Source of the DNA: a virus
Lineage: Duplodnaviria; Caudoviricetes
Length of the DNA stretch: 64,000 nucleotides
Reading direction: 5' to 3' (one strand)
IMG/VR virus record: IMGVR_UViG_3300013121_000033
Location: 96,001 to 160,000 of that record
Shown here: in pieces, positions 24,831 through 60,852 of the stretch
How the letters are laid out: every line of letters begins with the position of its first letter
Position numbering within the stretch: position 1 is the stretch's first letter
Made by a program: the position numbers and the translations under genes
Notes under the pieces: generated by a model
The model's input: only the letters and a program-made list of their open reading frames with translations
Databases searched by the model: none
What the model was told of the DNA's origin: nothing

Positions 24831-24837
24831 TCGCCAG

Positions 24838-24911
24838 TGTCCCCAGTCGGATTCGAACCGACGATGACCGGAGTGAAAGTCCGGCGACTTGGACCGCTAG
24901 TCGATGGGGGC
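24838..24911 (-). tRNA. tRNA-Glu(TTC)
   Basis: Cloverleaf; CCGGA-CT-TTC-AC-TCCGG anticodon arm; TTCGAAT T loop; C2:A71 mismatch; no encoded CCA. Confidence 0.9.
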
Positions 24912-24912
24912 T

Positions 24913-24988
24913 TGGCACCGCGCACGAGATTCGAACTCGTAACCTCCGCCGTGAGAAGGCGGTGTGCTGCCAGTTGCACCAGCGCGGC
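24913..24988 (-). tRNA. tRNA-Glu(CTC)
   Basis: CCGCC-TT-CTC-AC-GGCGG anticodon arm; encoded CCA. Confidence 0.92.
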
Positions 24989-25018
24989 TCGAACTACAAG
25001 AGGCCATCGGGTGCAGCG

Positions 25019-25091
25019 TTCCGAGGGGAGGACTCGAACCTCCGGCCTCCCGATCCAGAGTCGGGCGTTCCGCCAACTGAACTACCTCGGA
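25019..25091 (-). tRNA. tRNA-Gln(CTG)
   Basis: TCCGAGG/CCTCGGA acceptor (U1-A72); CCCGA-CT-CTG-GA-TCGGG anticodon arm. Confidence 0.92.
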
Positions 25092-25093
25092 GC

Positions 25094-25136
25094 GGTGGGG
25101 GCTCCCCGAGGCGTGACGCGTTCGGGGAGCTACACC
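25094..25136 (-). promoter_or_regulatory. Putative attenuator/switch hairpin after the leader ORF
   Basis: GGTG-TA-GCTCCCCGAACGCG-TCA-CGCCTCGGGGAGC-CC-CCACC begins at the leader stop codon. Confidence 0.6.
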
Positions 25137-25189
25137 TGGCGCTGCGGCCGACGGCCGGTGCGCTCTCGATGTTCTCGACGCCGAAGCAT
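25130..25189 (-). CDS. Putative leader peptide MLRRREHRERTGRRPQRQV of the Gln/Glu tRNA operon
   Basis: ATG 7 nt after TGTGG-TACCGT; contains GAA, GAG and CAG x2. Confidence 0.55.
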   Translation of the reverse strand: MLRRREHRERTGRRPQRQV

Positions 25190-25194
25190 GCCGG

Positions 25195-25713
25195 TCACGG
25201 TACCACAGCAAGCGGCGACCACGACAAGTCATTCATGGCGTCGAGCAGGACGGCACGGGCAGGCGTCTCGACAGATGCCGGAGGGTCGAGCCAGCCGTCA
25301 GGGTTGAGAACGCTCTGTATCAAGGTGCGGCACCCGCGCTCGGCTGCCCATGCGCCGATGACGATGTGAGCGAGTATCGACGTCGACCCAGACCAACCGC
25401 CGCCCGTGTCGGTGATCCGGGTGTTGACCTCGATGAACGCTTCGCCGGGCCACACGCCGTCTGGTCGGCAGGAGGAGTCGTACTCGGCGAGGTTTCGTTC
25501 GAGCCCGGCATTCACAGTGAACCCCCAGCTTCCCCCGGCGTGCACCCCTTCCGGTATCCACCATTGCCAGGTGCCGCCGAGGTCCGGGTAGTCGTGGTGC
25601 GGGATCGGCTCGACACGGGGGCGGAGAGTGTGGAGCAGGCGGGCGACGGCGTCGCGTAACTCGACCGGGTTCACCGGGTCGAGGAACCGGACGGCGGAGT
25701 CGGGCGCGGTCAC
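25195..25713 (-). CDS. Hypothetical protein
   Basis: GTGA-coupled start. Confidence 0.6.
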   Translation of the reverse strand: MTAPDSAVRFLDPVNPVELRDAVARLLHTLRPRVEPIPHHDYPDLGGTWQWWIPEGVHAGGSWGFTVNAGLERNLAEYDSSCRPDGVWPGEAFIEVNTRITDTGGGWSGSTSILAHIVIGAWAAERGCRTLIQSVLNPDGWLDPPASVETPARAVLLDAMNDLSWSPLAVVP

Positions 25714-31817: not shown

Positions 31818-32240
31818 TCAAGTCCAGGTCCGGGCGGGTGGGAGCCCGGCGGCGAGCGCTTCGAGGACCGCGACATGCCAGCGGGCGTGGAGGTCGCCCA
31901 TCGGGGTGCCGGTGCCGTGGCTGGCGAGGTTCCACAAGACCTGCTGGTGCGGCGAGTAGTGAACGTTGTCGCCGCCGTGGGCGTACACGAAGCGGCTCTC
32001 CCACACGTCGTTGTGTCCGTGCGCTTCGAGAAGCGCCTTGACGGTCGGGTAGACGTCGAACTCGCCGGGGCCGATCTTGACCGCTGGGAGGAACCCGAGT
32101 TCCCGCCACGTCGGCACATAGATGGACCACAGTCCGCCGTTGTTGATGATCGACGCGATGAGCGAGTCACCGATCCGTGCGGTGGGCGGAGCTTCGTCCT
32201 GCTCGGGTAGCCGGAACGAGATGAACGTGTCGTTGTCCAT
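31818..32240 (-). CDS. Hypothetical protein (MDND start)
   Basis: Follows conserved promoter copy 3. Confidence 0.7.
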   Translation of the reverse strand: MDNDTFISFRLPEQDEAPPTARIGDSLIASIINNGGLWSIYVPTWRELGFLPAVKIGPGEFDVYPTVKALLEAHGHNDVWESRFVYAHGGDNVHYSPHQQVLWNLASHGTGTPMGDLHARWHVAVLEALAAGLPPARTWT

Positions 32241-32280
32241 GGCGTCGAACCCTACCCTTGCGTTGTGGTCACGTCAACGC
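32229..32280 (-). promoter_or_regulatory. Conserved promoter/operator, copy 3
   Basis: TTGACG-17-TAGGGT-8-ATGGACAACGAC; GCGTTG-N9-CAACGC. Confidence 0.8.
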
Positions 32281-32328
32281 TTCGGAAAGTCGGGCGGTGG
32301 GGTTGACTCGGGTGGTACCGTGGCCCTC

Positions 32329-32376
32329 GTGCGTTCCCGTCTCCAACAGCGTCGCTGGCCTCAGCCACCGCTCTAG
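32329..32376 (+). CDS. Putative leader peptide MRSRLQQRRWPQPPL of the Pro/Trp/Gln tRNA operon
   Basis: GTG 7 nt after GGTGG-TACCGT; contains CAA, TGG, CCG (also CAG, CCT, CCA). Confidence 0.55.
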   Translation: MRSRLQQRRWPQPPL

Positions 32377-32421
32377 CTCCACCGGAACGCGCCCAAGATC
32401 ACCCGAGCGTCCCGGCGGAGC
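32376..32421 (+). promoter_or_regulatory. Putative attenuator hairpin after the leader ORF
   Basis: GCTCC-ACCGG-AACGC...GCGT-CCCGG-CGGAGC starting at the stop codon. Confidence 0.55.
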
Positions 32422-32488
32422 GGAAGCCCGCACGGGGCTCTCTTGGAGTGGTGGCCGAAGCCAGCCGACAAGGGACCCCCGGACACCA

Positions 32489-32564
32489 CGGGGTGTAGCC
32501 CAGCGGCCAGGGCACCTGCTTCGGGAGCAGGGGATCGGGAGTTCGAGTCTCCCCACCCCGACCA
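32489..32564 (+). tRNA. tRNA-Pro(CGG)
   Basis: CGGGGTG acceptor; CCTGC-TT-CGG-GA-GCAGG anticodon arm; encoded CCA. Confidence 0.93.
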
Positions 32565-32583
32565 GGTCGCCCCACCGAAACGA

Positions 32584-32656
32584 AGGGGTGTAGCTCAGCG
32601 GCGAGAGCAGCGGCTTCCAAACCCGCGTGTCGGGGGTTCGAATCCCTCCACCCCTG
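32584..32656 (+). tRNA. tRNA-Trp(CCA)
   Basis: AGGGGTG/CACCCCT acceptor with G73; GCGGC-TT-CCA-AA-CCCGC (C31:C39 mismatch). Confidence 0.9.
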
Positions 32657-32660
32657 CTGA

Positions 32661-32733
32661 TGGCCCGTAGTTCAACTGGCGGAACGCCCGACTTTGGATC
32701 GGGAGGTTGCAGGTTCGAGCCCTGCCGGGCCAG
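32661..32733 (+). tRNA. tRNA-Gln(TTG)
   Basis: TGGCCCG/CGGGCCA acceptor; CCCGA-CT-TTG-GA-TCGGG anticodon arm. Confidence 0.93.
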
Positions 32734-33132
32734 CTACACCGACGCTGCGCGTGCGCGGTCGTTCTCGTGGGTGACGTCGCAGGCGGGGCACTGGCCTTCG
32801 GGTTTGATGTCGCGGGTCAGGTGGTTGTGGCGGGTCGGGTCGACCCTGCCTTGGATCGAGATGGGGACGGCGCTCTTGAGGAACGAGAGCAGCTTCGCAG
32901 CGGTGTGTTCCATGTCGCTGACGCTGCGCCTCTCCTCGATGTCTATGGACAGGCGGCGGGCCTTGCGGAACGCGGCACCGAGGGACGCCATGTCGAGGGC
33001 GCCGTGGACGACGACGTTGCGGCCGAGGGGGGCGTCACCGGGGTCCTCGTTGATCGCGGCGGCCAGGTCGCGTGGCGACCAGGGACCGGGGTCGTCGACC
33101 TCGATGAGCAGGATGCGGCGGGGCTTGTCCAT
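32734..33132 (-). CDS. Hypothetical protein
   Basis: MDKPRRILL start 8 nt after TAACGT; C-terminal H.H..CPACD motif. Confidence 0.6.
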   Translation of the reverse strand: MDKPRRILLIEVDDPGPWSPRDLAAAINEDPGDAPLGRNVVVHGALDMASLGAAFRKARRLSIDIEERRSVSDMEHTAAKLLSFLKSAVPISIQGRVDPTRHNHLTRDIKPEGQCPACDVTHENDRARAASV

Positions 33133-34432: not shown

Positions 34433-34599
34433 GCCGCGACGGGGACGGAGGTACGGCGTCCGAGCGGCGGGCTCTCCGTGCCGTCGGCGTACACGAGGAC
34501 GACGTGGCTGCCGTCGACGAGGACGTCGATCACGAGTCTCGGGCCGTGCCGGGTGAGGACGACGTCGCCGGGGTCGATGAGCCAGGCGCGGCGAGTCAC
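34429..34599 (-). CDS. Small hypothetical protein (56 aa)
   Basis: GTGA-coupled to the SNF2 gene; VTRRAWLIDPGDVVLTRHG...; not in the ORF track. Confidence 0.55.
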   Translation of the reverse strand: MTRRAWLIDPGDVVLTRHGPRLVIDVLVDGSHVVLVYADGTESPPLGRRTSVPVAA

Positions 34600-37500
34600 C
34601 GGAACAACGGGATGACGTTGCCGCCATCATCATCGCCTTCGTCGGGTTCGGCGGGCGTCGTAGGGATCGGTTCCCCCGCCTGTTCCAACACGGCACGAGC
34701 GAGCATCTTGACGCGGTCGGCGTCGACCTCCATGAGCGGCGTGATCCGCTCGATCGACGGGTCCTCGATCGGTTCCGCCTGCTGCTTCTTCACTCCCAAC
34801 ACCTCGATCATCGGCAGGTCGGACCCGACATCGGACGTAAGGAAGTACGCGAGGACCGGATGGTTCTCCTGACCGGGCCGATTCAATCGGCCAATGCACT
34901 GCGCATGCATCGACGGTGTCCAGTCGAGTTCGCCGAACACGCCGACGTGGCAGACGTCTTGGAGCCCGTTGAGCCCGGCACCGGACCGCAAGCTCATGAT
35001 GAACACGGCGGAGCCGCCTTCGTTGTTCGGGCGGCGGAACCTGTCGAGAGCGTCGCGTTTCTGTGTGTCCGACTCTGCACCAGTGAACTTGACCGGCCGA
35101 TGCTTCGCCAACCGTTCCATCCAGATGTCGTAGCACGCGTGGTGCCATCCCCAGAGGACGACTTTGTCGACCGATTCGAGTAGTAGCTCAACGAACGCTG
35201 CGACGTATGGGGCCTTCGCGATGCCGGTTGCTTGGCGGAGGCGGACGTCCAACTCGCCTGCGGCCTGCCACCGGTCCGTCGTGGGTGTCTCTTGGGAGAG
35301 GATGAACCGGGCGAGTTCCGCGGCGTTGCCGGAGAGTTGGTCGTAGACGTCGATGTCGTGGTCGACGACCTGTTCGATGCGGAGCGGTTCGATCCCGGGG
35401 AGTTTCACCCCGACCATGACCCCGGAGTCCCGGAGGAACGAACCGAGCGCAGCGGGGTTGGCGACACGGGGCTTGCCGCCGTAACTCGACCCGCACCATT
35501 CGCGCAGGAACTCGTGTCGTTCGCCGAGCGCGTCGGGGCGGACGATGCTGTAAATCTCCCAGAGGTCGCCGCCGTAGTTCGTTACTGGTGTCGCGGTGTT
35601 GTGGACGAGCACTCCGTCAGCGACGAACGAGGGGTGTCCTACCATCTCTAGGTCGTACACCACGTCCGGGCTTTCGAGGTCGGCCTCAACTGAGCGGACA
35701 GCGGCTTCTTTGAGCTTGTTTCGCCCCCAGTCGTATCTGACTCGGTTACCTCGCCAACCGAAATTGTCGCCGGACTCGGCATGCGCTGACCAGTTGACTG
35801 AGAACGCGTTTCTTGTCCCTACGATCTTCCGTCCATGGGCGTCAGCCCCGCCCGCTCCTGTCCCGGTCCGGCAAGACAGGCTGCCTTGGGCGCCCAAGCT
35901 TCGGAGCAGGCTGAGCAGGGACGTGGCGAGGGGTTTCGAGACGGTCGTGTAGTACCGACGACCGTCTCGACCCACACTGCCGTCGCTATCAACCAGTCCT
36001 CGGAGTAGTTCGCGACGAGCCGTTTCGGGCCACGAGATGATCCACTCACCTGGGATGAACTTGTCGTAGCAGTTGGCGCCTCTGGTCGTGCGGCGCAGCA
36101 TCTCGGAGAACAGAGGATGACTGAATCGCACTTCGACGCTTCGGCCGTTGCCCGGCCGCAACTTGGGTTCGAGGGCGACATGTGGCAGGTTGGCGACCAT
36201 GTCCATCATGTGCTCAGCAAGGGCGTCCTCGACGGCGAGCCCGACGCGGGTGCCGTCCAACCAGCCGTCGCCGAGGTAGAAGCCCAAGAGGTAGGCCCAG
36301 TCGCTCAAGTTCACAGATGCGGCGATCCATCGGTGCCCCCGACCGATGCCCTGGTATGCGCCGGTCGGCGGAGGGAGAAGTGCCGCATGTTGGCGGTAGA
36401 TGTCGGCTGGCAGACGGGGGCCGAACTTGGCTTCTTTGTGGAAGTTCTGCCATTGCCACGCTGTGACGCCGATGTCGTGTCGGGTGATACCAGCGGTGTC
36501 GACGACGACTTGGCCTCGGACGAGGTCGGCAGCAAGGTCGGCGAAATCGAAGGGCTGTTCCGCTACGGCAGCCCAGCCGTTCCCGTCGTCGCCAGCGAGC
36601 CGGTCCCCGGGGGTGAGCCCGTCAGCGCGGACAAGGTCGAGCCCGCGAGCGGCAACGCGGTACACAGAGTGTTCATCGGTGAGCGTAAGGCGACCACTCG
36701 GAACGCGGAGCGTCGTCGTGGTGGTGTCGCACCGGTGGCGGAGGAAGGTGCGAACTGGCTTCCAGCCGAACCTCTCCCCAGTCCACCCCCGCGACCTGAC
36801 ATCAAGGTGTTCCACTCGAAACAGTTCGTGGATGCCCCAACATTCTGGCGCCACTTCTTTCGCCACAAGTCGCGTCGCTTCCTCGATAGTCCCTACCCAC
36901 CCCGTGCCGAACGGACCACCTATCATCTCGACCACGCTGTCTGGACCGACGCTCAGGCCGACGACGTAGTTGGCTTTGTCGGCGATCGTCGCGGCGGCGG
37001 TGCCTTTCACGGTCGAGGTGCCGTTGCGGAGTTCCTGGACTTCGTCGAACACGACGGAACGGATCGCCCCTGCGAGATGCTGCGACCAGCCGCCGAGCTT
37101 CGAGTAGGTCGTGACGTACACGTCGGGTGGCCGGACGTGGCGTCGTCCGAGCCGGGTGCGCATCGGGTCGTACGGTGTGCCCTTCGTGACGACGTGGACG
37201 TGGAAGTCGGGCCACGTCGCCTTGATCTCGTTGTACCACTGGTGTTGGAGGTGGGGGGCGGCGACCACCAGGCCGGGGAGGGCGTCCGGGTTCCGGAACG
37301 TGAGCGACCCGCTATAGGACTTACCGGCTCCGAGTGAATCGGTGATGAGTAGCCGCTTGACGACCGAGACGATGTCGGCGTTCGTCCGCTGGTGATCCCA
37401 TCGTGGGGCGCGGGCCGGGATGCGGAAGTCGCCGTCGACGGGGTGTCCAGCGAAGATCGAGACGATCTGGTCGCCGATCCATCGTTGCCGGTCGGCTACC

Positions 37501-37721
37501 GCGGTCAGGTGCGCTAGGTCGTCGGCGCCGACGTCAAGCGGCCAGCGGATCAGGGACCACTCGATGTCGAGCGCGACATCGTCGGACTCGGCGACAACGA
37601 TCGTCCCGGAACGAGTCGCTAACGCTCGTGGGAACAGGCGCTTGAGACGGACCGCGACGTGTGGTTCGACGTCGAACACCCAATAGGTGTCCTCGCGGGT
37701 GAGGGTCCCGTAGGTGCGCAT
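34596..37721 (-). CDS. SNF2-like SF2 helicase containing an intein
   Basis: DSLGAGKS, VFDEVQELR, L|TATP, SLRSGAGLNGLQ, QCIGRLNRPGQ. Confidence 0.9.
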   Translation of the reverse strand: MRTYGTLTREDTYWVFDVEPHVAVRLKRLFPRALATRSGTIVVAESDDVALDIEWSLIRWPLDVGADDLAHLTAVADRQRWIGDQIVSIFAGHPVDGDFRIPARAPRWDHQRTNADIVSVVKRLLITDSLGAGKSYSGSLTFRNPDALPGLVVAAPHLQHQWYNEIKATWPDFHVHVVTKGTPYDPMRTRLGRRHVRPPDVYVTTYSKLGGWSQHLAGAIRSVVFDEVQELRNGTSTVKGTAAATIADKANYVVGLSVGPDSVVEMIGGPFGTGWVGTIEEATRLVAKEVAPECWGIHELFRVEHLDVRSRGWTGERFGWKPVRTFLRHRCDTTTTTLRVPSGRLTLTDEHSVYRVAARGLDLVRADGLTPGDRLAGDDGNGWAAVAEQPFDFADLAADLVRGQVVVDTAGITRHDIGVTAWQWQNFHKEAKFGPRLPADIYRQHAALLPPPTGAYQGIGRGHRWIAASVNLSDWAYLLGFYLGDGWLDGTRVGLAVEDALAEHMMDMVANLPHVALEPKLRPGNGRSVEVRFSHPLFSEMLRRTTRGANCYDKFIPGEWIISWPETARRELLRGLVDSDGSVGRDGRRYYTTVSKPLATSLLSLLRSLGAQGSLSCRTGTGAGGADAHGRKIVGTRNAFSVNWSAHAESGDNFGWRGNRVRYDWGRNKLKEAAVRSVEADLESPDVVYDLEMVGHPSFVADGVLVHNTATPVTNYGGDLWEIYSIVRPDALGERHEFLREWCGSSYGGKPRVANPAALGSFLRDSGVMVGVKLPGIEPLRIEQVVDHDIDVYDQLSGNAAELARFILSQETPTTDRWQAAGELDVRLRQATGIAKAPYVAAFVELLLESVDKVVLWGWHHACYDIWMERLAKHRPVKFTGAESDTQKRDALDRFRRPNNEGGSAVFIMSLRSGAGLNGLQDVCHVGVFGELDWTPSMHAQCIGRLNRPGQENHPVLAYFLTSDVGSDLPMIEVLGVKKQQAEPIEDPSIERITPLMEVDADRVKMLARAVLEQAGEPIPTTPAEPDEGDDDGGNVIPLFR
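35598..36953 (-). mobile_element. Intein (452 aa) with LAGLIDADG homing endonuclease
   Basis: Starts Ser (SVGPDSVV), TDEHSV block B, LLGFYLGDG and LRGLVDSDG, ends FVADGVLVHN followed by Thr+1; removal restores VVGL-TATP. Confidence 0.92.
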
Positions 37722-37738
37722 GCGGGCGGCGATGCTAC

Positions 37739-38335
37739 CTACAACCCGCCGCCGACATAGATGACGGTGAGGGTGCAGGGGCCGACCGTTCCGGGGAGAC
37801 GCCGGTGCGTGACGCGGGTCGTGACAACGACCAGGTCGGTGAGCCGCGGGTCCTTCGAGTAGCGGAGTAGCTGCGCGAGTAGCGTCGTGTCCGACCCTTT
37901 GACCTTCACCTCGACGCCGACGGTGCCGTCGACGACGAAGTCGATGCGGTCCCTCGGGGTGAGGCGCACTTCGCGTTGGTAGGGGAGCGCGGCGGCGTCG
38001 AACGCTTCGGCGAGCCCGGCTTGGAGGTCGTGTTCGCTGGCGTAGCTGTACTTCCACGAGCGCACCGCGGCGACGACCGCCGCACGGGGGTCACCGGCGA
38101 GGTGGGCGGGCCGGTGGGTGTCGTCGACGTACGCGCCATAGATCGACGCGACCGACCGGCGGAAGTCGATCCAGTCGGACAGGGTGGTCGGCCCGGGGCG
38201 GCAGTCGAGGCACCCGTCCGCCGTGGCGGTGTGGATGTCGACGCCGAGCAGTGAGAACCGGGCGACGGTGTACCCGTCCGGGGAGTCGACCCACACGGTA
38301 CGACCATCGGACCGGATCAGAGGGTCGATCGCCAC
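37739..38335 (-). CDS. PD-(D/E)XK nuclease-like protein
   Basis: SEHDLQ..YQREV..RIDFVV..VGVEVK. Confidence 0.7.
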   Translation of the reverse strand: MAIDPLIRSDGRTVWVDSPDGYTVARFSLLGVDIHTATADGCLDCRPGPTTLSDWIDFRRSVASIYGAYVDDTHRPAHLAGDPRAAVVAAVRSWKYSYASEHDLQAGLAEAFDAAALPYQREVRLTPRDRIDFVVDGTVGVEVKVKGSDTTLLAQLLRYSKDPRLTDLVVVTTRVTHRRLPGTVGPCTLTVIYVGGGL

Positions 38336-50949: not shown

Positions 50950-51630
50950 CTAGTACCCCTTCGCTTGTCGATGTCGTTCGTTGCCGATGTGGGTGACCCA
51001 CGGGCCATCATCGCGTGCACCCCAGTAGCCGACGGTGATGGTCGGGTCTGCGAACAGGCGGGTCGTCCATGCCGACTCAGACTGCGGGTCGGGCGGCCAT
51101 CCTTCACGGCAGACGATGGAGCGGTGCAGCGACGGGTTCGTCGTCCAGAACCGGCGGTGTTCAAGCCACGGCCACCCGGCTGTCTCACGGTCCGTGAACG
51201 ACTCGGGGGCGAGTTCGACGACGCCGCCAGCGGCGATCTCGTCGCCGTTGACCGGCTGGCGGCGCAACGCGATCTGCGCGACGTGAGGGTGGAGTTCGAG
51301 TAGGTGCGCGACGGCGTCGAGGTTGACCGCCCGGTTGTAGATGAAGTCGTCCTCGGTGGAGAACACAAAGGGTTCTGGGACGTGGCGGGCGATGTGGGTC
51401 CAGGCGTGCCGGTAAGCGCCACCGAAACCAGAGCGACCAGGGGTCGTGACGACACCCCACCCCGGGTAGCGAGACGTGAGCATCGCGGCATGTTCGGGGT
51501 CGCCGGAGTCGTCGTGGATCAGGCGACGGGTGATGCGGCCGTGGATGTTGTCGAGCAGGGACGCGATCGACTCGTGGAGGTACCGGTCGCGGCCATCGGT
51601 CATGACGACGAGACAGATCGACGGGACCAT
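50950..51630 (-). CDS. Glycosyltransferase family 2-like
   Basis: VMTDGRDRYL, IHDDSG, STEDDF, HIG. Confidence 0.8.
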   Translation of the reverse strand: MVPSICLVVMTDGRDRYLHESIASLLDNIHGRITRRLIHDDSGDPEHAAMLTSRYPGWGVVTTPGRSGFGGAYRHAWTHIARHVPEPFVFSTEDDFIYNRAVNLDAVAHLLELHPHVAQIALRRQPVNGDEIAAGGVVELAPESFTDRETAGWPWLEHRRFWTTNPSLHRSIVCREGWPPDPQSESAWTTRLFADPTITVGYWGARDDGPWVTHIGNERHRQAKGY

Positions 51631-52280
51631 CAGTTGTGGACCATGAGGACGTTCTTGAGGACGGCGCAACGGGGAGGTGGGATCGAGGATGCCATGACGT
51701 CCTCGATGAAGTCGCCGTCGCTGTTGGCGTCGAGGTTCCGCCAGCCGACCCGCTTCGCGATGCGGGAGGTGACGACGAGCGATCCGGCGTCGCAGCGGTT
51801 CCGCTTAGGGGCCACTTGGAGTACGGAGTAGGCAGGGTCGCTCGGCCGGTTGATCCGCTCGTAGTTGTGGACGCACGGGAAGATGACGAGTTTCGCTCGG
51901 GTCCTGTCGAACGCATCGAGGACAAACTCGACGTAGCGCGGCATCAGATAGTTGTCGGCGTTCTGTGTGGCCCAGAATGCGGTGGTGGTCGCTGCGATGC
52001 CGTGGCGGCGGAGGCTGTGCCCCCAGTTGTTGTGCCGTTCTGGTGTCTCGGCGTATGCGAAGTGTTCGGGGTAGCGGTCGGCGTAGGAGCCGCAGATGAG
52101 CCGCGCCCGCGGGTCGGGGCCGTCGTTGATGAGGTGCGCAAACCAGCGGTTGTCGGTCTGCAACAGCAACGAGTTCACGATGATGTGCCACTCGGCTTCG
52201 AACCCGTAGCCGACGACGGTGATGGTGATGCGGGCGCCGTCTGGGGCTGGGGGGAGCCCCAGGGTGTCGTCATCGGTCAT
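51630..52280 (-). CDS. Glycosyltransferase family 2-like
   Basis: SLLLQT, INDGPD, NWGHSLR, NADNY, DGDF. Confidence 0.8.
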   Translation of the reverse strand: MTDDDTLGLPPAPDGARITITVVGYGFEAEWHIIVNSLLLQTDNRWFAHLINDGPDPRARLICGSYADRYPEHFAYAETPERHNNWGHSLRRHGIAATTTAFWATQNADNYLMPRYVEFVLDAFDRTRAKLVIFPCVHNYERINRPSDPAYSVLQVAPKRNRCDAGSLVVTSRIAKRVGWRNLDANSDGDFIEDVMASSIPPPRCAVLKNVLMVHN

Positions 52281-58562: not shown

Positions 58563-59087
58563 TCATTTCCACTTCGGGGTGTTCAACTCCGCCATCCGGC
58601 CGAGACAGGCGCCTTGGCCGATCTGTGTCCAGGTGACCGGCCCGTACGTCGTGACCGGGGCGACGGCTCGGACGGCGCTGTCGGCGGCTTCGATGTCGTC
58701 GGGGATGCCCTCGAAGAGCCGGTAGTACCGGGCCGACACGATCTCCTGAACCCATGGTCCCGGTGGGTCGATCAGGCGGCGACCGGCTACTTCGATCGGT
58801 TCCACGATCGGGGTCGGCGGCCTGGCTTCGTAGTGCACCCAGAACCGCAGCGGTCGGTCCAGGTCCGTGATCCCGTTGTGGACGACCAGATCGTCGAGGT
58901 CATCGGCAGGGATACGGATGCCCCACACCTCTCCGGCGAGGTAGACGGGAAGGTCACCGGTCGGGGCGACGCCACGACAGACTCCACACGCGCCAACGGC
59001 GAGCGACGACGGGTCGGTGAACGCCAGGCTTGTGACCAGGCATGTGCACCGGTGGAACGGCACAGCGAGCCCGTACCTCGACTTCAT
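58563..59087 (-). CDS. Hypothetical protein
   Basis: TGATG-coupled to rtcB. Confidence 0.6.
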   Translation of the reverse strand: MKSRYGLAVPFHRCTCLVTSLAFTDPSSLAVGACGVCRGVAPTGDLPVYLAGEVWGIRIPADDLDDLVVHNGITDLDRPLRFWVHYEARPPTPIVEPIEVAGRRLIDPPGPWVQEIVSARYYRLFEGIPDDIEAADSAVRAVAPVTTYGPVTWTQIGQGACLGRMAELNTPKWK

Positions 59088-60253
59088 CAGGTCCCCTTGT
59101 AGTTGAGCAGAGCGGTGAGGCGGTGCAACGGGCGGACCAGGTCGGCCTGTGCGTCCATCACGTTCTCGATGTCCTTGTAGGCGCGGGGGTCCTCGTCGAT
59201 CAGCTTTGCAGCGTCGCTGTCGTTCCACGCCTTCCCGGCCATCGCGTCGCGCAACCCGTCGAGATCGAGGTTGCGGCGCGCCTGGTTGCGGGACATGCGA
59301 CGCCCGGCGCCGTGCGAGCACGACTCGTAGCTGGCCGGGTTCCCGAGCCCTTCGACGATGTAGCTCCCGGTCGCCATCGACCCGGGGATGATCCCGAGGT
59401 CGCCGACCCCGGCACGGATCGCGCCCTTCCTTGTGACCCACAGGTCGACACCGTGGTGGTGCTCGCGGGTGCAGTAGTTGTGGTGGCACTGGATCGTGCG
59501 GACGGGTTCGAAGTGGTAGCCGACCGCTCCGGCGACCTGAACGAGGACGGCGTCGAGCATCATCTGCCGGTTCAACGCGGCGTAGTCCTGCGCCCACAGC
59601 ATCGCCGCGATGTACGCGTCGAACTCCGGGGTGCCCTCTACGAGGTAAGCGAGGTCAGGGTCGGGGATGTCCGCGAGCGCAGCGCCCATCGCCCTCTCTG
59701 CGGCGGCGACGTGGACGTCTGCCAACTGCTTGCCAACCCCGCGGCTCCCCGAGTGCAGCACAACCCACACCCGGTTGCGTTCGTCGGCGCACACCTCAAC
59801 GAAGTGGTTGCCGGACCCGAGCGACCCGATCTGTGTGTCCATCGCCGTTTCCATCCGGTCGGTCATCCCCTCAGGGCGGCGGGCGAACAGGTCGGCAACT
59901 TCGGCGCTGTGGGTGCGCCGGTCGTGACCGCGGCCCGCCCCGGCAGGGACGACAGCGGCGATCGCCGAGTGGAGCTTCCCAAGGTCGTCGGGGAGCAGGT
60001 CCACCGTGAACGGACACTCGACGGCCCCCATCCCACATCCGATGTCGACGCCGACGGCGGACGGGATGACCGCGGCTTCGGTCGCGATGACCGATCCGAC
60101 GGTCGCGCCAAACCCGAAGTGTGCGTCGGGCATGAGCGCGATCGGTTCGTGGACCACGGGGAGTGACGCGCTGTCGGCGGCCTGGCCGATCGTCTTGTCG
60201 TCGAGGTCGGCTGCCCAGGAGAGGACGTTCGGGCGGATGAAGGTGGGGGCCAT
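59087..60253 (-). CDS. rtcB: RNA ligase RtcB
   Basis: MPDAH, VGVDIGCG, GSGNHF, HSGSRG, HHNY, RKGA, PGSM, SCSHGAGR, DEDPRAYK. Confidence 0.95.
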   Translation of the reverse strand: MAPTFIRPNVLSWAADLDDKTIGQAADSASLPVVHEPIALMPDAHFGFGATVGSVIATEAAVIPSAVGVDIGCGMGAVECPFTVDLLPDDLGKLHSAIAAVVPAGAGRGHDRRTHSAEVADLFARRPEGMTDRMETAMDTQIGSLGSGNHFVEVCADERNRVWVVLHSGSRGVGKQLADVHVAAAERAMGAALADIPDPDLAYLVEGTPEFDAYIAAMLWAQDYAALNRQMMLDAVLVQVAGAVGYHFEPVRTIQCHHNYCTREHHHGVDLWVTRKGAIRAGVGDLGIIPGSMATGSYIVEGLGNPASYESCSHGAGRRMSRNQARRNLDLDGLRDAMAGKAWNDSDAAKLIDEDPRAYKDIENVMDAQADLVRPLHRLTALLNYKGT

Positions 60254-60270
60254 CTGGCGAGCCTTGCAGG

Positions 60271-60852
60271 TCAGGTCGGTTCGGTTCCGAGTGATTTGAC
60301 GGTCGCGTGGACGGTCGTCATGTCGACTGTCCAGCGTGCCGGGGCGGTGGGGACGGTCCCGGGTTGCTCGGGGCGCCACACCCACGAGACGTTCTTGTGG
60401 GTGACGGTGGCGTCCGTGGATGCCGGGTCGTCCGGCGCGAACGAAGGACCGAACACGAGCGCGAGGCACGCTGCCTCTGTTTCGAGCGCGCCAGCCTGCG
60501 CTCTCGACGCGGCGAGGTGCGCGGTGAGCTTGGCGACCTGATCCGAGAGGTCCGCTACGACCGCTTCCGTTTCGGACGCCTTGATGCGCTCAGCCGCGAG
60601 GGCGCCGATCATCGCTTCGTACACGTCGTCGTACTCGGTGAGAGCACGGCGCATGGCGCCGATCAGCGCCTCTCTGTCGGCCACGAACCCGTTGCGGGCA
60701 ACGGTCGGCTTGTACCGCTCCCACAGCGTCAGCAGGGCGTACTTGAGGTCGCTACGGGCGTGGGCTTCCTCCGGGTTCTTCTCGGGGACCGCTGGTATCG
60801 CTGGCGCCTTGAACCCCGTACGAAGGACCGCTTTGACGTTGTCGTTGACCAT
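60271..60852 (-). CDS. Hypothetical coiled-coil protein (MVND start)
   Basis: Follows promoter copy 8. Confidence 0.7.
   Translation of the reverse strand: MVNDNVKAVLRTGFKAPAIPAVPEKNPEEAHARSDLKYALLTLWERYKPTVARNGFVADREALIGAMRRALTEYDDVYEAMIGALAAERIKASETEAVVADLSDQVAKLTAHLAASRAQAGALETEAACLALVFGPSFAPDDPASTDATVTHKNVSWVWRPEQPGTVPTAPARWTVDMTTVHATVKSLGTEPT

Follow-up and report, generated by a model that had tools for sequence, protein, structure and literature searches.

The Pro/Trp/Gln unit, at positions 32311-32734 of a 64,000-nucleotide stretch of a tailed phage genome (Caudoviricetes), consists of a promoter box, a short leaderless reading frame, a structured spacer, and three tRNA genes, and the frame carries a cognate codon for each of the three tRNAs. 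The stretch, referred to here as the window, comprises bases 96001-160000 of IMG/VR virus record IMGVR_UViG_3300013121_000033, which is 225,159 bp long with ~67% G+C. Leaders were found by reading the DNA upstream of every tRNA cluster in this genome, and five units with a shared layout were recovered. Each of the 21 tRNAs in these units finds a cognate codon in the leader ahead of it if wobble pairing is counted; under strict Watson-Crick pairing, 18 of them do. Judging from sequence, we consider it somewhat probable that each leader is a gauge of decoding capacity, read by the ribosome, that sets the output of its tRNA operon.

Leader frames matched to their tRNA genes

An earlier note on this DNA had placed a promoter box, a gap of 7 nucleotides (nt), a GTG, a 15-codon frame, a stop-linked hairpin, and three tRNAs at 32311-32733, and all of these features were found at those coordinates. 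The -10 box, TACCGT, lies at 32316-32321 (+) and is extended by the TGG in front of it; the whole element, GGTGGTACCGT, spans 32311-32321, and there is no good -35 element. The leaderless frame (32329-32376, +) starts with a GTG 7 nt past the box and holds 15 sense codons, ending at a TAG at 32374-32376. CCG, TGG, and CAA, which the earlier note had named as the cognate codons of the three downstream anticodons, are indeed each present once. Half of the residues after the start (7 of 14) are Pro, Trp, or Gln, and these are grouped in the last 10 codons. The first tRNA gene begins 112 nt beyond the end of the frame. The three genes, tRNA-Pro(CGG) at 32489-32564 (+), tRNA-Trp(CCA) at 32584-32657 (+), and tRNA-Gln(TTG) at 32661-32734 (+), were called by both ARAGORN and Rfam, the first with an Rfam score of 65.4 bits.

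Both genes flanking the unit are on the minus strand, and the gene after the tRNAs is thus convergent with them. The divergent upstream gene, itself leaderless (31818-32240), is served by a consensus phage promoter at 32249-32277 (-) that reads TTGACG, 17 nt, TAGGGT, 8 nt, ATG. Since the flanking genes are on the other strand and the upstream gene has a promoter of its own, the tRNA unit is a separate transcription unit with its own promoter. Across the whole genome there are ~25 consensus promoters (TTGACG, 17 to 18 nt, TAGGGT or similar) with the ATG of an ordinary gene 6 to 8 nt downstream. Leaderless starts 6 to 8 nt past the -10 box are therefore the rule in this phage, and the inferred start of the leader is in character. 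Examples of these promoters lie at window positions 32238-32277 (-), 30232 (-), and 16015 (+). Most of their products start with Met-Asp-Asn-Asp, and the first 12 transcribed bases are conserved too, perhaps as a signal for leaderless initiation or as part of the promoter.

The genome contains 26 tRNA genes in seven or eight clusters, and the layout of the Pro/Trp/Gln unit occurs five times: a TAnnnT box, exactly 7 nt, a start codon (ATG or GTG) that opens a frame of 15 to 36 codons, structured RNA, and tRNAs. The -35 element is fair, at a distance of 17 to 18 nt, in three leaders, and the other two have an extended -10 box instead. In addition to Pro/Trp/Gln, the units are Gln/Glu/Glu, His plus Asn/Arg/Lys/Lys/Arg, Phe/Thr/Thr/Thr/Arg/Asp/Gly, and Ser/Ser. 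The His unit is interrupted by an open reading frame (ORF) on the opposite strand, inserted between the His tRNA and the Asn/Arg/Lys/Lys/Arg tRNAs. This ORF (genome 164688-165142) is rich in Cys and His and has the appearance of a mobile insert that split a formerly continuous operon. No leader was found upstream of the Met cluster or the Ala/Val cluster.

The Gln/Glu/Glu unit is a sister unit within the window. At 25130-25206 (-), it has an identical -10 box (25197-25206), 7 nt, and an ATG that opens a 19-codon frame (25189-25130) carrying CAG twice, GAG, and GAA. A hairpin of nine GC-rich pairs (25101-25130, -; z score of the fold, -2.57) begins at the G of its TAG, and the tRNAs Gln(CTG), Glu(CTC), and Glu(TTC) follow at 24837-25091 (-; ARAGORN and Rfam). 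The 10-mer GTGGTACCGT has two copies in the 225-kb genome, one at the Pro/Trp/Gln unit and one, on the opposite strand, at the Gln/Glu/Glu unit. The idea of the earlier note that leader, hairpin, and tRNAs form a modular cassette is supported by the fivefold recurrence, by the fit of each frame to its own tRNA set, and by the presence of the cassette in a relative of the phage, described below.

The match between leaders and tRNAs was evaluated in several ways. When the same anticodons were sought in the leaders of other units, a cognate codon was present in only 21% of cases. Among the 120 pairings of leaders with tRNA sets, only the true pairing gives 21 matches, and the runner-up gives 18. 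Frames +1 and +2 of the same leaders yield 5 and 9 matches, compared with 21 in frame 0, and 20,000 nucleotide shuffles of the leaders produced a mean of 9.6 matches and a maximum of 18. With codons drawn from phage usage, a strict match to three of three anticodons has a probability of 0.0065 for the Pro/Trp/Gln leader and 0.036 for the Gln/Glu/Glu leader. These values give numerical form to the argument of the earlier note that two leaders each fitting their own tRNA set speak against coincidence, an argument that the pooled count over five leaders extends. The Fisher combined P value over the five leaders is ~1e-4.

The amino acids carried by the downstream tRNAs are also enriched in the leaders. 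In the Pro/Trp/Gln leader, the 7 of 14 matching residues compare with an expectation of 11% (binomial P = 4e-4). The Ser leader (8/14, P = 1.5e-7) and the Phe/Thr leader (20/29, P = 1.6e-4) are likewise enriched, and the remaining two leaders give P values of 4.6e-3 and 0.046. When all 15 ORFs lying within 250 nt upstream of the full set of seven clusters were listed without regard to promoters, the Ser and Phe/Thr leaders were significant after correction. Most matched residues fall late in the frames, and in most leaders they are within ~1 to 8 codons of the stop. These data establish the anatomy of the units, their recurrence, and the statistical match between each leader and its tRNA set.

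In the Phe/Thr leader, three ATC codons and four GGT/GGC codons are left over once the seven tRNAs called by ARAGORN are accounted for. Two tRNA-like sequences that ARAGORN missed may be relevant here. The Asp and Gly genes are separated by 90 nt (genome 167482-167571, -) that can be folded into a cloverleaf with GCC in the anticodon loop, although the loop is unusual in having C at position 33. Just beyond the last gene, genome positions 167279-167397 (-) hold an Ile(GAT)-like sequence with a CTGATAA anticodon loop and an insertion of ~55 nt, which scores 28.5 bits in Rfam, where the cut-off is 29. Both are weak calls, but the GCC and GAT anticodons do agree with the GGT/GGC and ATC codons of the leader. 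A count of ten tRNAs behind this leader was considered and rejected, as ARAGORN and Rfam together support seven, plus one borderline match and one tRNA-like fold.

Counterparts in other phages

Relatives were sought with a 1038-amino-acid protein as the lineage marker. A HerA-like ATPase had been considered for the same role and was rejected because it is common across temperate actinophages. The best genomic matches of the marker protein are almost only in Actinomycetota (among them Actinomadura, Kribbella, Actinotalea, Cellulomonadaceae, Nocardioides, and Arthrobacter), and the host of the phage is therefore probably an actinomycete. No close relative was found by megablast and blastn against cultured phages or by comparison of three neighboring proteins with IMG/VR, and the search of the marker family returned only distant relatives. 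Among the GC-rich relatives whose DNA was examined, tRNAs are present only in L011, a 118-kb GC-rich Logan contig whose marker protein is 39% identical. Low-GC jumbo phages with a marker that is 24 to 32% identical have many tRNA clusters and are too distant to count as relatives. One of them (IMG/VR, 229 kb, 33% G+C) carries 56 tRNA genes clustered by amino acid (Leu, Ile, Lys, Thr, His/Asn, Pro, Trp, and others).

The L011 unit consists of TACGGT, 7 nt, and a frame of 13 codons that begins with GTG and has three Gln and three Pro within its last eight codons. A G5/C5 hairpin directly after the TAG is followed by tRNA-Pro(CGG) and tRNA-Gln(CTG), and its promoter box and spacing can be aligned with those in both leaders of the window. 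L011 has neither a Trp tRNA nor a Trp codon in its leader, so that the content of the leader tracks the tRNA set. No further tRNA cluster was present within the 42 kb of the contig that were examined.

A second occurrence of the design is in the cultured Caulobacter phage phiCbK (NC_019405, ~51340-51710), where TTGACA, 17 nt, TAGGGT, 7 nt, and an ATG introduce a 32-codon frame with two Phe, three Val, two Ile, and three Gln codons. An annotated rho-independent terminator and the tRNAs Phe, Val, Ile, Ile, Val, Gln, and Gln follow. Ser, Leu, Pro, and Lys abound in a second phiCbK unit (annotated as gp335), which lies ahead of tRNAs for Pro (two), Lys (two), Leu (three), and Ser (two). In our reading, a segment of the phiCbK leader copies the 3' arm of the terminator, which would constitute classical on-demand wiring. 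Outside the tRNAs, phiCbK has no detectable sequence similarity to the phage studied here. As far as sequence comparison can tell, the design occurs in two unrelated lineages, and the phage studied here carries the version without canonical terminators.

A third candidate is Mycobacterium phage StAugustine (PV251870, ~81900-82050), in which TATGCT, 7 nt, and an ATG open a 23-codon frame that runs into the first tRNA. The frame includes Trp, three Gln, Asn, Tyr, four Arg, and Val, and the array is Trp/Asn/Gln/Lys/Lys/Val/Thr/Ile/Arg/Tyr/Arg/Arg. This phage is a possible culturable example; the case is suggestive and statistically weak, as the enrichment is marginal by a rough estimate.

RNA structure and the proposed read-out

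The Pro/Trp/Gln leader and spacer are predicted to fold with an energy of -79.8 kcal/mol (z = -4.14), and none of 200 shuffled sequences was as stable. Three elements make up this fold. In hairpin 1 (32376-32421, +), ~13 pairs and two A-C mismatches enclose a C-rich loop of 16 nt; the 5' arm opens at the G of the TAG (GCTCC...), and the 3' end is the GGAGC at 32421. Hairpin 2 (32426-32445, +) has four to five GC pairs followed by TCTCTT and is weak; it is the only terminator-like element in the unit and was not called by the terminator scan. The 3' strand of a long-range helix (32440-32469, +) pairs with the leader's final nine codons (32351-32376), among which are the single Trp codon, the three Pro codons, and one Gln codon out of three. 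This helix closes a three-way junction that encloses hairpins 1 and 2.

The other four leaders have z scores of -2.6, -3.8, -4.1, and -1.25. In every unit, one helix includes the stop codon or the last codons, and a ribosome at the end of the frame must therefore open a helix. In the Gln/Glu/Glu, Pro/Trp/Gln, and L011 leaders, the hairpin's 5' arm begins at the stop codon; in the leaders designated L3 and L5, it begins within the last codons. A search of the window with Rfam at the gathering threshold found only tRNAs and no T-box architecture. When the leaders were folded with ribosome-covered segments masked, no consistent pattern emerged and no defined alternative pair could be named, although the pairing of leader with spacer would depend on the position of the ribosome.

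We also considered the possibility that the spacer acts as a decoy that traps the acceptor stem of the first tRNA in a misfolded state. The native leaders do cut the predicted acceptor-stem probability to 0.00 to 0.28. This idea was rejected, since shuffled leaders do so equally often, with fractions of shuffles at or below the native value of 0.57, 0.72, 0.40, 0.03, and 0.47. In the Ser unit (genome 177374-177454, -), there are two copies of the 9-mer GAGGGGTCG, one within the final codons of the leader and one at the 5' end of tRNA-Ser(GCT). The spacer of this unit can pair with either copy, and the general test for misfolding was not above chance.

These features suggest a mechanism in which a host-type promoter would start the transcript at the GTG, giving a leaderless mini-mRNA joined to a structured spacer and three tRNA precursors. 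The speed of the ribosome across the Pro, Trp, and Gln codons would then decide whether it occupies the last codons and the stop, and its position would in turn decide whether the stop-adjacent hairpin and the leader-spacer helix form while the polymerase enters the tRNA genes. A ribosome on the Trp, Pro, or Gln codons would presumably open the helix between 32351-32376 and 32440-32469. The structures might set the yield of mature tRNA through read-through, through pausing, or through processing or stability of the precursor. We infer from the layout that the frame is translated, that its translation is coupled to the RNA structure, and that the coupling has a polarity. The polarity we favor is supply on demand, with slow decoding leading to more tRNA, because a ribosome stalled at the matched codons would mask the stop-adjacent helix and because the phiCbK counterpart is wired in the classical manner.

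Several observations weigh against this gauge. The frame at 32329 is open upstream as far as an ATG at 32122 (84 codons), so the 15-codon reading depends on the promoter inference. When the peptides were held fixed and synonymous codons were redrawn, 16.5 strict matches were expected compared with the 18 observed (P = 0.24; P = 0.08 with wobble). The Pro codons of the L011 leader are CCT, CCA, and CCC, none of which is decoded by its tRNA-Pro(CGG). Arg makes up 8 of 18 residues in the Gln/Glu/Glu leader (P = 0.003 versus shuffles), in an operon without an Arg tRNA, and the first half of the His leader is rich in Ala and Asp. With z scores of -1.25 and +0.9, respectively, the fifth leader (L5) and the L011 leader are not unusually structured. 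The terminator scan found no intrinsic terminator between 32376 and 32489, and there is no U-tract in any of the five leaders, so that a classical terminator/antiterminator pair is not visible. Lastly, no matched leaders were found in the cultured actinophages Phendrix and BRock, which have large tRNA arrays.

The structural points bear on a rival reading that keeps the sensor and reverses its polarity. Here, the stop-adjacent hairpin would be a pause site or a terminator lacking a U-tract, melted only by a ribosome that reaches the last codons; good decoding of Pro, Trp, and Gln would switch the operon on and an early stall would leave it off, creating an autocatalytic switch. In this arrangement, the terminating ribosome must unwind the hairpin, as its 5' arm starts at the stop or within the last codons, and no convincing alternative antiterminator pairing was found. 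However, the unit has no U-tract, a ribosome stalled near the stop would equally mask the hairpin, so that supply on demand fits as well, and the phiCbK leader segment that repeats the terminator 3' arm would represent on-demand wiring. We regard the reversed polarity as possible but unlikely.

The result of the synonymous redraw has a second consequence. Because the redraw with fixed peptides is not significant, the match is mainly one of amino acids, and codon choice is compatible with tuning without showing any. The L011 Pro codons, unread by the CGG anticodon, again indicate matching by amino acid and not by codon. The weight that the earlier note had given to the rare CAA codon could not be upheld, since codon choice beyond amino acid identity is not significant. 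The G+C content at third codon positions (GC3) is 0.57 in the Pro/Trp/Gln leader, 0.57 to 0.79 across the leaders, and 0.86 in genes, and the leaders thus use rarer codons. The lower GC3 fits either a slow-decoding design or weak selection on codon usage alone.

The long open frame and the absence of a significant codon-level match are also what would be expected if the whole correspondence were a coincidence, given that open frames are common in GC-rich DNA and that the match was noticed post hoc. The frame controls, the nucleotide shuffles, the permuted tRNA sets, and the ORF listing all reject this explanation (P < 5e-5 for the five units jointly), and the design recurs in L011 and phiCbK. 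We therefore consider coincidence to be highly improbable.

The surplus of Arg raises the question of whether the short frames instead encode functional basic peptides, such as Arg-rich RNA binders targeting the hairpin or the tRNA precursors, in which case the tRNA match would be secondary. In addition to the Gln/Glu/Glu leader, Arg accounts for 4 of 14 residues in the Pro/Trp/Gln leader (P = 0.06), whose operon also lacks an Arg tRNA, and a hairpin adjoins each frame. However, the Ser leader contains a single Arg and over half of it is Ser, the five peptides share no common motif past the first three to five residues, the GC3 of the frames is far under that of genes, and the match of 21 of 21 to the leaders' own sets would be left unexplained. 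This alternative is accordingly very doubtful. The leaders use the Arg codons that are decoded by the Arg tRNAs encoded in the His/Asn/Arg/Lys operon of the phage itself.

A simpler role for translation can also be envisaged, in which constitutive reading of the leader merely shields the pre-tRNA transcript from Rho or from RNases that depend on the 5' end. Transcripts of this phage commonly begin with a leaderless frame, and the Met and Ala/Val operons manage without a leader. Protection gives no reason for enrichment, operon by operon, in the amino acids of the operon's own tRNAs, and we judge it to be quite unlikely.

Returning to the gauge, we would tentatively extend it to other phages. 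In at least two unrelated lineages, one represented by this jumbo phage and L011 and the other by phiCbK, tRNA operons may be autoregulated by a translated amino acid barcode that reports on the decoding of the codons served by their own tRNAs. In the phage studied here, the read-out would be free of terminators, with ribosome-dependent refolding gating pausing, the access of Rho, or pre-tRNA processing.

Known leader systems and significance

Leader-peptide attenuators control the trp, his, leu, thr, ilv, and pheA operons and, for a synthetase, pheST. The units described here resemble these classical attenuators in having a short upstream frame enriched in the relevant amino acids (several at once, as in ilvGMEDA and thr) and an RNA structure that overlaps the end of the frame. 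They differ in that their targets are tRNAs and not biosynthetic or charging enzymes, in that they are leaderless, and in that they have neither a hairpin with a U-tract nor a clear set of 1:2, 2:3, and 3:4 pairings. The pyrBI and pyrE leaders are similar in another respect, since there too a hairpin lies at the end of the frame and the position of the ribosome alone decides whether it forms, with no separate antiterminator. However, those leaders sense nucleotide pools through the speed of the polymerase and end in true terminators, whereas the variable here would be the speed of decoding at specific codons.

In mycobacteria, leaderless Cys-rich short ORFs are cis-regulators of Cys genes. Like the present units, they belong to an actinobacterial setting, have no initiation signal other than a 5'-terminal ATG or GTG, and employ amino acid-enriched mini-frames as sensors; they differ in targeting protein genes. 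T-box riboswitches likewise tie expression to the state of a specific tRNA, yet a T-box is untranslated and binds uncharged tRNA through one specifier codon and a conserved motif, and the Rfam search returned no T-box family. A further likeness is to the phiCbK units, which have the -10 box, the 7 nt, the leaderless start, the frame matched to downstream tRNAs, and several units per genome; the annotated rho-independent terminators between frame and tRNAs in phiCbK have no equivalent in the present units. Leaderless small ORFs in general are treated in the leaderless landscape paper (PMC4633059). A full-text literature search turned up no description of leader peptides ahead of tRNA genes, an absence that is not proof, and the units are apparently an undescribed form of leader-peptide attenuation, one that would act on tRNA genes.

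The earlier note had also linked the cassette to counter-defense, and this is a possible use of the unit. Between the Met and Ala/Val tRNA clusters, 26 kb from the Pro/Trp/Gln unit, is a gene for an RtcB-type tRNA/RNA ligase (window 59087-60469, -; PHROG 1075, E = 3e-127). RtcB-type ligases are repair enzymes, and one would suit a phage exposed to tRNA cleavage; this gene is the sole link to tRNA damage, and the link is circumstantial. The window also contains a SNF2-type helicase gene (34596-38057, -) that is split by an intein with a LAGLIDADG domain (Pfam).

The genes for tRNAs are usually regarded as constitutive or controlled by growth rate, and the reason that phages carry them is debated, the main proposals being codon supply and escape from tRNA-cutting defenses. 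If the gauge proposed here is correct, the phage monitors decoding capacity for each tRNA separately and adapts the supply, and the debate over tRNA carriage becomes directly testable. The phiCbK unit is a culturable system for this purpose, and the StAugustine candidate might be a second. Leader-peptide attenuation would be extended to RNA genes and to leaderless transcripts, and refolding without a terminator would be a new output mechanism for leader-peptide sensing. Annotators would gain a rule for finding such units in many tRNA-rich phages. For the phage itself, the units would provide a built-in means to restore tRNAs depleted by the host or by a defense system.

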